From the IMG/VR virus record IMGVR_UViG_642791630_000016: DNA of 51,964 nucleotides; one strand, written 5' to 3'. The position numbers were made by a program. Positions 45,001-48,000 of the stretch are shown here, in pieces. The stretch is from a virus (taxonomy: Duplodnaviria > Heunggongvirae > Uroviricota > Caudoviricetes). Numbering within the stretch: position 1 is the first letter of the stretch; each line of letters opens with the position of its first letter.

Positions 45001-48000
45001 CCCTCAATACCCGTTTCATCGCGGCACTCTGGCGACACTCCTTAAAAATCAGATTCGTGCTCACCTTTCCTTCCCGTTCTTCTCTGGTAGCGAACCGGTA
45101 ATACACCGTTCGCCAGACCTTACCATCAACGACCAGGATTCCTGCCCGCGCCATTTTAGCCGCAGCCTGATTTATGCTGGTTACGGTTGCGCCTGTTACC
45201 GCGGCAACGTCCTGTGCACAGAAGCTCTTATGCGTCCCCAGGTAATGAATAATTGCCTCTTTGCCCGTCATACACTTGCTCCTTTCAGTCCGAACTTAGC
45301 TTTAATTTCTGCGATCTTCGCCAGAGCCTGTGCACGATTTAGAGGTCTACCGCCCATAACAGGAAGTTGTTTTACTGGTTCAGGTATCGTCTCACCACGG
45401 TTAATTCGCGCTGTCATACAGGTCAGTTCATCGGCAGCCTTGCGCCGTAATTCCGCGTCAGTCAGCGCATTGGCCCGCATGTTCTGGTACAAGTTGGTAA
45501 CCAACCAGTAATGCGCGTTCGATTTCCACGGATAAGACTCTGCATCCGGATACAGGCCACGCTTCCGGCAATACTCGTAAACCATATCAACCAGCTCGCT
45601 GACGTTTGGCAGCCCGGCGTTAACGGATGCTTCTTCCCGGCACCAGGCCACAAACTGCCCGGGTGATGGCAGGAATGGTCGATTCTGCCGACGGGCTACG
45701 CGCATTGAACCGCCCCGGAAATCCTGGAGACTAAACTCCCTGAGAAAGAGGTAAACAGGATGACTAAAAATACTCGTTTTTCCCCCGAAGTCCGTCAGCG
45801 GGCGATTCGTATGGTTCTGGAAAGTCAGGATGAATATGACTCACAGTGGGCGGCAATTTGTTCCATTGCCCCAAAGATTGGCTGTACGCCGGAGACTCTG
45901 CGTGTCTGGGTTCGCCAGCATGAGCGGGATACCGGGGGCGGTGATGGTGGGCTCACCAGCGCTGAACGTCAGCGTCTGAAAGAGCTGGAACGTGAAAATC
46001 GTGAACTGCGCCGCAGTAACGATATCCTTCGCCAGGCTTCCGCTTATTTTGCGAAGGCGGAGTTCGACCGCCTCTGGAAAAAATGATGCCACTGCTGGAT
46101 AAGCTGCGTGAGCAGTACGGGGTCGGACCGGTATGCAGCGAACTGCATATTGCCCCGTCAACGTATTACCATTGTCAGCAACAGCGACATCATCCGGATA
46201 AACGCAGTGCCCGTGCGCAGCACGACGACTGGCTGAAGAGAGAGATACAGCGCGTATACGATGAAAATCATCAGGTGTACGGTGTGCGTAAAGTCTGGCG
46301 TCAGTTGTTACGGGAAGAATCAGGGTGGCCAGATGTACAGTGGCACGTCTCATGGCGGTTATGGGACTTGCCGGTGTTCTCCGGGGTAAAAAGGTCCGTA
46401 CGACCATCAGCCGGAAAGCCGTTGCCGCAGGCGACCGCGTAAACCGTCAGTTCGTGGCAGAACGACCTGACCAGCTGTGGGTGGCTGATTTTACTTACGT
46501 CAGCACATGGCAGGGCTTCGTCTATGTGGCGTTTATCATTGATGTGTTTGCCGGATACATCGTGGGGTGGCGGGTCTCATCGTCTATGGAAACGACATTC
46601 GTGCTGGATGCGCTGGAGCAGGCGTTGTGGGCCCGTCGTCCGTCTGGCACCATCCATCACAGCGATAAAGGCTCTCAGTATGTGTCACTGGCCTATACGG
46701 AGCGACTAAAAGAAGCCGGATTACTGGCATCAACAGGGAGTACAGGCGACTCGTATGACAACGCGATGGCTGAGAGCATCAATGGTCTTTACAAAGCGGA
46801 GGTAATACACCGTAAGAGCTGGAAAAACCGTGCAGAAGTGGAACTGGCCACACTAACGTGGGTGGACTGGTATAACAATCGACGATTGCTGGGAAGGCTG
46901 GGCCATACTCCTCCGGCAGAAGCAGAAAAAGCTTATTATGCTTCCATCGGAAACGATGATCTGGCAGCCTGAGTTCACAGATAAAACACTCTCCAGGAAA
47001 CCCGGGGCGGTTCACATTCCTGCGTTAACCTGTTCCATTGTGGTGATCCCGTTTTCCCGGAAAGCCAGAACCCACTGGCGGCGGATTTCGTTCAGTTCAT
47101 TCTGGTCACGGTTAGCCAGGCTCGCCGGGAAAGTTGCCAGTAACTGCCTGAACACACCGTTGATGATCTGCGCTACCTGCTGTACCTGTGGCTTTTCGTC
47201 GTACTGTTCCGGCATGTTGTTGGCGATCCGGCGCATCTGCTCACAGTCAAAGTTAACCATTTGTGCGGCGATGTTTTTCATAAATCCACCCCATAAATCC
47301 AGTCAGTGTTTGTCAGGTCCAGTTTTGATTTTCCGGCTGTCACTCCAGCCTGTTGCTTGTTACGGTTGATTTCGAGTTGGGTCCACTTGTCACGGAGTTT
47401 GGCCGGACTTAGCACGTTACCGGACCAGAAGTTGTCCTGGCATGCCCAGCGGAACAGCACGCACATGTCGCGGTGGTTACGTCCGTCACGTTCACGCATC
47501 AGGCGGATATCGTTAGCCCACCCTGCAAAATTCGGTTTTCTGGCTGATGGCGCGATGGTCTTCACCATGTCAAACATCCACTCTGCGGCGGTCAGGTCTT
47601 CTGCTGTCCCCCACTTGCTGCCGCTCTGAATCGCAGCATCCGGTTTCACCACAGGAAGGTCGTTTTCTGGCTGGTCAGAGGATTCGCCAGAATTCTCGGA
47701 CGAATAAGGTTTTATATTGTCTTTTGTTATTTTGTCTTTTGTGTTTACCTGATTCGGGTAAACGTCTTTACCTGATTTGGGTAAACTTTTTTTACCTGAT
47801 TCAGGTAAATTTACCTCTTTCAGGTAAACTTTATTTTTCTTACCTGATTCGGGTAATGTTGACCATTCACTGACCACATTATTAATGCCGGTATTCCGCC
47901 CGCTCTGAATAAGAATCCCACGCTTTACCAGAACGCTTTTTGCAGCAGAACACTTGTGCGGCAATATCCCGGTCAATTCGGAAAGTTGCTCGTTGCTCAC

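Follow-up and report, generated by a model that had tools for sequence, protein, structure and literature searches.

An IS629 Insertion in Replication Gene P of an Escherichia coli O157:H7 Prophage and a Missing Base in Its Transposase Gene

The lambdoid prophage analysed here, given by IMG/VR virus record IMGVR_UViG_642791630_000016 and treated throughout as a single stretch of 51,964 nucleotides (the window), carries within replication gene P a copy of insertion sequence IS629 of the IS1203 isoform. The same insertion is already on record for E. coli O157:H7 strains EC4115 and TW14359, and the window copy is set apart from its published counterparts by one G that is absent from transposase gene orfB. 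These observations are best explained by an ancestral insertion into P that was inherited by the strain from which the window derives, together with a one-base deletion introduced in the assembly of its sequence; we give this explanation as a whole a probability of about 0.65. Insertions of IS629 in O157:H7 prophages are much used as markers for typing and lineage.

Structure and Identity of the Element

The boundaries of the element can be fixed to the base (Table 1). The sequence TGAACCGCCCCGG has two exact matches in the window, at 45706–45718 on the plus strand and at 47002–47014 on the minus strand, and occurred twice in none of 100 shuffles. The matches form the outer ends of imperfect terminal inverted repeats of 25 nt, which start with TGAACC and in which 22 of the 25 positions are paired. 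The repeat search matched just the two ends of this element, and the window contains no further IS629 copy for comparison. With a length of 1309 bp (approximately 1.3 kb is typical of the IS3 family), imperfect terminal repeats with a 5'-TG start, a short direct target duplication (CAT on both sides and a single CAT at the empty site), and orfA and orfB in 0/-1 phases with a programmed frameshift signal, the element has the organization of an IS3-family insertion sequence.

Table 1. Positions of the IS629 insertion, its transposase genes, and the interrupted P region in the window
Feature	Position	Strand	Description
IS629 (IS1203 isoform)	45706..47014	+	1309 bp; transposase genes on + strand, antisense to P
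IRL, left terminal inverted repeat	45706..45730	+	25 nt, 88% complementary, outer 13 nt perfect
IRR, right terminal inverted repeat	46990..47014	-	25-nt inverted repeat
Left CAT of 3-bp target-site duplication	45703..45705	.	Codon Met89 of P on - strand
Right CAT of 3-bp target-site duplication	47015..47017	.	Sequence; empty site; flanks in Table S2 of Rump et al. (2011)
orfA	45760..46086	+	108 aa, intact; HTH_Tnp_1, Pfam PF01527, E = 2.4e-12
Programmed -1 frameshift signal (ALIL pseudoknot)	46041..46157	+	Intact; Rfam RF01497, 121.5 bits vs gathering score 50
orfB, 5' part	46083..46442	+	78 native and 41 out-of-frame codons before stop; partial HTH_21 only
orfB, 3' part, original frame	46325..46972	+	Entire rve (DDE) catalytic domain; cut off from orfA and orfB start
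P, N-terminal fragment (codons 1–89)	47015..47281	-	ORF 47012–47281, 89 aa; partial "replication protein P" pseudogene in TW14359
P, C-terminal fragment (codons 89–233)	45268..45705	-	145-aa ORF, starts at the other CAT
Replication gene O	47278..48297	-	Upstream of P in the same operon; "replication protein" in TW14359; Pfam Phage_rep_O on L008 gene
ren	44969..45271	-	Directly downstream of P; ORF list; TW14359 annotation

By megablast the element is present in 4,251 of 5,426 complete E. coli genomes, and the top matches are copies of 1310 bp named [quoted passage not shown] It is 99.9% identical to more than 1,000 records annotated as IS1203 family, and base-by-base alignment with the canonical 1310-bp copies, including the one at the same locus in TW14359, gives 1309 identical positions out of 1310, the annotated copies serving here as proxies for the ISfinder reference entries. 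No exact match to the 1309-bp copy was found among the records of the complete E. coli set. In ISfinder practice an isoform shares at least 95% nucleotide identity with the named element, and the window copy lies within this range.

Identity to copies on Shigella flexneri plasmids is lower, at approximately 96%. IS629 comprises two sub-types that diverge by about 4%, sub-type I being IS1203-like and found in O157, and sub-type II being the Shigella type (Rump et al. 2011, PMC3271280). The two figures agree, and the name IS629 is therefore valid in its O157 usage while "IS1203 isoform" is the more precise; classified by its sequence, the element is IS629 in the broad O157 sense and an IS1203 isoform of sub-type I as defined by these authors. 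The initial annotation, which had named it IS629 and described a 1309-bp IS3-family element with terminal inverted repeats, was correct to the base in its coordinates and, on this broad usage, in the name.

Among the closest known systems are the copy-out-paste-in elements IS1203 and IS1203v, of the IS3 family, with the layout of the window copy (genes in 0/-1 phases served by an A6 run plus the ALIL pseudoknot, inverted repeats of 25 nt, and a target duplication of 3 bp); the window copy departs from them, in the sequence as given, by a one-base deletion that breaks orfB. Shigella IS629 (sub-type II) has the same length and organization as the window copy but is about 4% diverged, which places the latter with the O157/IS1203 sub-type and not with the Shigella type. 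Target duplications of IS629 are 3–4 bp long, and the element has no sequence-specific target (Rump et al. 2011, PMC3271280). A consensus scan of the element revealed no promoter-like site acting outward on the P operon, and terminator-like sites that might affect the operon occurred at chance level only.

The Interrupted Replication Gene

Deletion of the element together with one CAT yields a P gene of 702 bp encoding a protein of 233 amino acids that reads ...EQVNAGMRVARRQN... From end to end, this restored gene has 100% identity to the uninterrupted gene annotated "replication protein P" in many O157:H7/O55:H7 genomes. The uninterrupted genes carry a single CAT and so present the empty site directly; the duplication is therefore one of 3 bp. 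The division of P into two parts, its exact restoration, and the flanking CAT had all been proposed in the initial annotation, and each is borne out by this comparison.

The restored protein matches the Pfam profile Phage_lambda_P (PF06992) over residues 38–198 (E = 5e-62; 208.9 bits against a cut-off of 26), and this match, with the gene order O-P-ren, assigns it to the family of lambda P, the loader of the DnaB helicase. It is 98–99% identical to the P proteins of phage SfI and of Stx1a-converting phages. Lambda P and the window gene differ in that the latter is split at codon 89 by the insertion and is thus a pseudogene. The N-terminal open reading frame closes at a TGA (47012–47014) provided by the end of the element. 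P-like genes are found at up to five places per genome.

With its two fragments separated by the element, P has no intact copy in the prophage, as had been claimed at the outset. Because P is split inside the Phage_lambda_P domain, DnaB would not be expected to be loaded at the O-bound origin. On established knowledge of lambda replication, the prophage should be unable to make a DnaB loader of its own or to replicate by itself, and after induction it would be expected to replicate only if P were supplied by another prophage.

Distribution of the Insertion in O157:H7

A 100-bp probe across the left junction found full, exact matches in 26 complete genomes, all of O157:H7 type, among them EC4115, TW14359, SS17, SS52, JEONG-1266, and RM6067W. 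In at least 20 of the 26 the span from P through the element to P measures 2015 bp, meaning that the element there is 1310 bp long. The TW14359 locus is a prophage integrated in mlrA (yehV), in which two partial P pseudogenes flank the insertion sequence in the PGAP annotation. The window is collinear with this prophage and approximately 99.98% identical to it over 21 kb around the insertion.

The insertion corresponds to entry IS.36 of a published IS629 survey, where the flanks CTACGCGCAT and CATTCCTGCG are listed for both EC4115 (element at 2971677–2972986) and TW14359 (2926548–2927857) (Rump et al. 2011, PMC3271280, Table S2). Flanks, CAT duplication, orientation, and prophage locus are the same in IS.36 and in the window; the published copies are 1310 bp long with an intact transposase, whereas the window copy is one G short. 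Because the same junction occurs in 26 genomes and has its own entry, the insertion is an already catalogued marker, typical of the lineage of EC4115-, TW14359-, and SS17-type O157:H7, and is not new. Although IS.36 is labelled "backbone" in Table S2, its position is within P, in the prophage at mlrA (yehV).

The annotation of the TW14359 mlrA prophage shows no stx gene from Q to the lysis genes, nor in the interval that runs from Q and the three tRNAs accompanying it to the DUF6645 gene; the prophage is a stx-negative occupant of the Stx1-phage site. In the window, positions of about 38000–45000 (by collinearity with 13000–20000 of locus L002) hold a DLP12-like block between ren and Q, with the genes emrE, ylcJ, ybcK, ybcL, ybcM, ybcN, ninE, ybcO, rusA, and ylcG.

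Several draft genomes (L010 and L012–L015; GCA_000462465.2, GCA_002486645.1, and assemblies of the series GCA_0016778xx/0016775xx/0016776xx) also have the same 89-amino-acid P fragment ending in IS629 in chromosomal surroundings other than mlrA, some 3 kb from icd and preceded by an integrase gene and a truncated O. These contigs end inside the element, and one side of the insertion is visible in each. The icd-linked arrangement could possibly have come about through prophage-to-prophage recombination or through IS629 entering this site a second time; given these drafts, a strictly single-locus history of the junction between the N-terminal part of P and IS629 is not proven.

Transposase Genes and the Missing G

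A run of six A residues at 46078–46083 is the likely slippery site ahead of the ALIL pseudoknot, and the ATG of orfB, at 46083, overlaps the stop codon of orfA and lies in the -1 phase. The sole difference between the window copy and intact 1310-bp copies is one G absent after position 46316 (46316/46317), which changes GGAAGGAATC to GGAAGAATC and, in longer context, GGGAAGGAATC to GGGAAGAATC. The initial annotation had proposed that a single G was missing from orfB, and the alignment confirms both the base and its place. When the G is added back, OrfB becomes a continuous protein of 296 amino acids with an HTH_21 domain at residues 47–104 and an rve domain at 127–223. As the sequence is written, the rve (DDE) domain is present but, because of the missing G, it is out of frame and is not joined to the helix-turn-helix of OrfA, as it would be in an intact IS3-family transposase. 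The copy is thus defective as written, and it still belongs to the same family.

If the frameshift is real, the window copy would produce no transposase, and the element is better described as non-autonomous than as immobile, because its ends are intact, other IS629 copies are present in relatives, and OrfAB can act in trans. Related genomes each contain approximately 16–26 places matching IS629. Kusumoto et al. (2011) reportedly showed that a disabled IS629/IS1203v, with nothing but its ends retained, was excised when OrfAB was provided from another plasmid. The judgement that this copy is probably immobile, made in the initial annotation, was accordingly too strong for an element that keeps both inverted repeats, orfA, and the pseudoknot.

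Is the Missing G a Mutation?

The deletion is private to the window among the sequences compared. A 70-mer across the missing G matched 5,481 records at 19,099 places, in no case with 99% identity or above; a 34-mer with the G deleted had no match in viral contigs or in GTDB representative genomes, and the exact broken OrfB product of 119 amino acids is not on record. The downstream open reading frame of 215 amino acids is on record, but solely from IS629 copies elsewhere whose upstream frameshifts differ from this one. In all six other frameshifted IS629 copies that were inspected, from other assemblies, the G is kept, as it is in the aligned copies at the same locus in TW14359, SS17, TR01, PNUSAE008406, and CP034936.

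Comparison of the window with TW14359 revealed ten further one-base deletions, each taking one base from a doublet or short run. Nine of them, all within 17917–18248, cluster with two substitutions in the portal gene at 17912–18248 (within 340 bp) and split that gene into fragments. No complete E. coli genome matches the cluster exactly, and the best of the 739 places matched reaches 95.7%. Nine deletions in 340 bp follow no mutational pattern, and the source assembly therefore holds uncorrected indels; 17912–18248 is almost certainly a low-quality stretch of it. The tenth deletion, at 2927, reduces CC to C in an Ail/Lom-family gene. A 70-mer over this site had no exact full-length match, although this is weakly informative, the probe also spanning nearby substitutions. 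The adjoining patch of substitutions at 2879–2898 resembles prophage mosaicism.

The differences that the window shares with other genomes are of another kind. Two isolated ones, at 32519 (a change in run length) and at 43614 (a substitution), each recur exactly in approximately 270 records and are therefore real polymorphisms. Differences that lack an exact match elsewhere are thus almost all one-base deletions, whereas the shared ones are ordinary variants. On these statistical grounds we think it probable that the missing G is an assembly error rather than a real mutation.

Other assemblies differ in the same element. In SS17 the copy at this locus (L003) is one A short in its A6 run and, in the right inverted repeat, shows C in place of T, and in PNUSAE008406 (L005) it contains several indels. 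Apparent transposase frameshifts recur in this copy across public assemblies, at different homopolymer positions, and many may be artefacts.

Discussion

We propose that the insertion arose by one transposition of IS629 (IS1203 isoform) into a lambda-type helicase-loader gene P. Going by what has been established for the IS3 family, the fusion transposase OrfAB would have come from a -1 slip on the A6 run that precedes the pseudoknot; it would have made a circular copy of the element, which would then have integrated at codon 89 of P with a staggered cut of 3 bp, duplicating CAT and splitting P into fragments of 89 and 145 amino acids. The host would have been a stx-negative lambdoid prophage at mlrA (yehV) in an ancestor of the EC4115/TW14359/SS17 group of O157:H7, and the strain represented by the window would be an heir of that insertion. 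Both inverted repeats are retained in the element, as are orfA and the pseudoknot for -1 frameshifting. The missing G, if taken at face value, would end OrfAB before the DDE domain; most probably it is a one-base deletion that the source assembly left uncorrected.

The principal competing reading keeps the same insertion and takes the missing G as a real mutation, private to this strain, that leaves a non-autonomous copy making OrfA and a truncated OrfAB devoid of the DDE domain; such a copy could still be moved or excised by OrfAB from about 20 other genomic copies and may add an inhibitor of the OrfA type. We regard this as possible without favouring it. The deletion is, after all, present in the sequence as given, it stands alone some 28 kb from the error-like cluster, and a GG-to-G change is also plausible as slippage in a living cell; its isolation outside the low-quality stretch counts against an assembly origin. 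The ends and regulatory signals of the element are intact, and both the trans action on disabled IS629 noted above and the abundance of IS629 in related genomes speak for this reading as well. On the other side, the deletion has no exact match among some 19,000 copies and is missing from every aligned copy at the same locus, and in form it matches ten further one-base deletions private to the window, nine of them packed in a manner unlike mutation, while the differences that recur in other genomes are of other types, one a substitution and one a change in run length, and not private deletions. Hence the frameshift announced in the initial annotation is present in the sequence but doubtful as biology, sequencing error, which that annotation had itself named as a way in which it might fail, being the more likely reading. 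Were the deletion real, the prophage would carry a resident non-autonomous IS629 that might act as a dominant-negative damper among about 20 active copies, an outcome we consider rather unlikely.

Two readings that alter the identity or the history of the insertion carry much less weight. The initial annotation had also allowed that the element might be some other member of the IS3 family, one in which OrfB is split here by nature. Nothing beyond the split reading frames points that way, and the window copy is one base from the canonical 1310-bp copies, gives a continuous 296-residue OrfB with both domains when the G is restored, and has intact counterparts that PGAP annotates as one programmed-frameshift transposase; the one-base difference rules this candidate out, and we give it virtually no credence. 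Codon 89 of P could instead be a recurrent target of IS629, the window insertion being independent of the one in EC4115 and TW14359. The icd-linked drafts, with the same 89-residue fragment ending in the element beside icd and an integrase, speak for recurrence. Against it, the window shares junction, orientation, and duplication with TW14359 in a collinear and nearly identical prophage, IS629 has no sequence-specific target according to Rump et al. (PMC3271280), and recombination between prophages can account for the icd-linked copies. Independent insertion in the window is consequently very improbable, and inheritance of one ancestral insertion is the reading we retain.

As a discovery the insertion matters little, since IS.36 is already on record and 26 complete genomes carry P annotated as a split pseudogene. 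What it suggests about the lineage is that its stx-negative mlrA (yehV) prophage would be replication-defective and so fixed in place. The second implication is one of quality control: the sole apparently new feature, the transposase frameshift, bears the signature of an assembly indel.

A Second Insertion in the Prophage

Elsewhere in the window, at 20342–30837, an integrative element of 10.5 kb splits the large terminase gene of the prophage into a gpA ATPase part (30840–31847) and a nuclease part (19216–20337). Its genes encode a P4-type tyrosine integrase (29440–30678), a BRO-N protein, a D5_N primase-helicase (24799–26553), and a fusion of ClpP protease and major capsid protein (21251–23140), and an imperfect 12-bp repeat, CCCT(C/A)CATCCAA, borders it on either side. 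The element is absent from TW14359 and has no exact match among the records of the complete E. coli set; a few other genomes, ERL06-2442 among them, have similar elements in their terminase genes, at approximately 97% identity. The element resembles a phage satellite with terL as its target.
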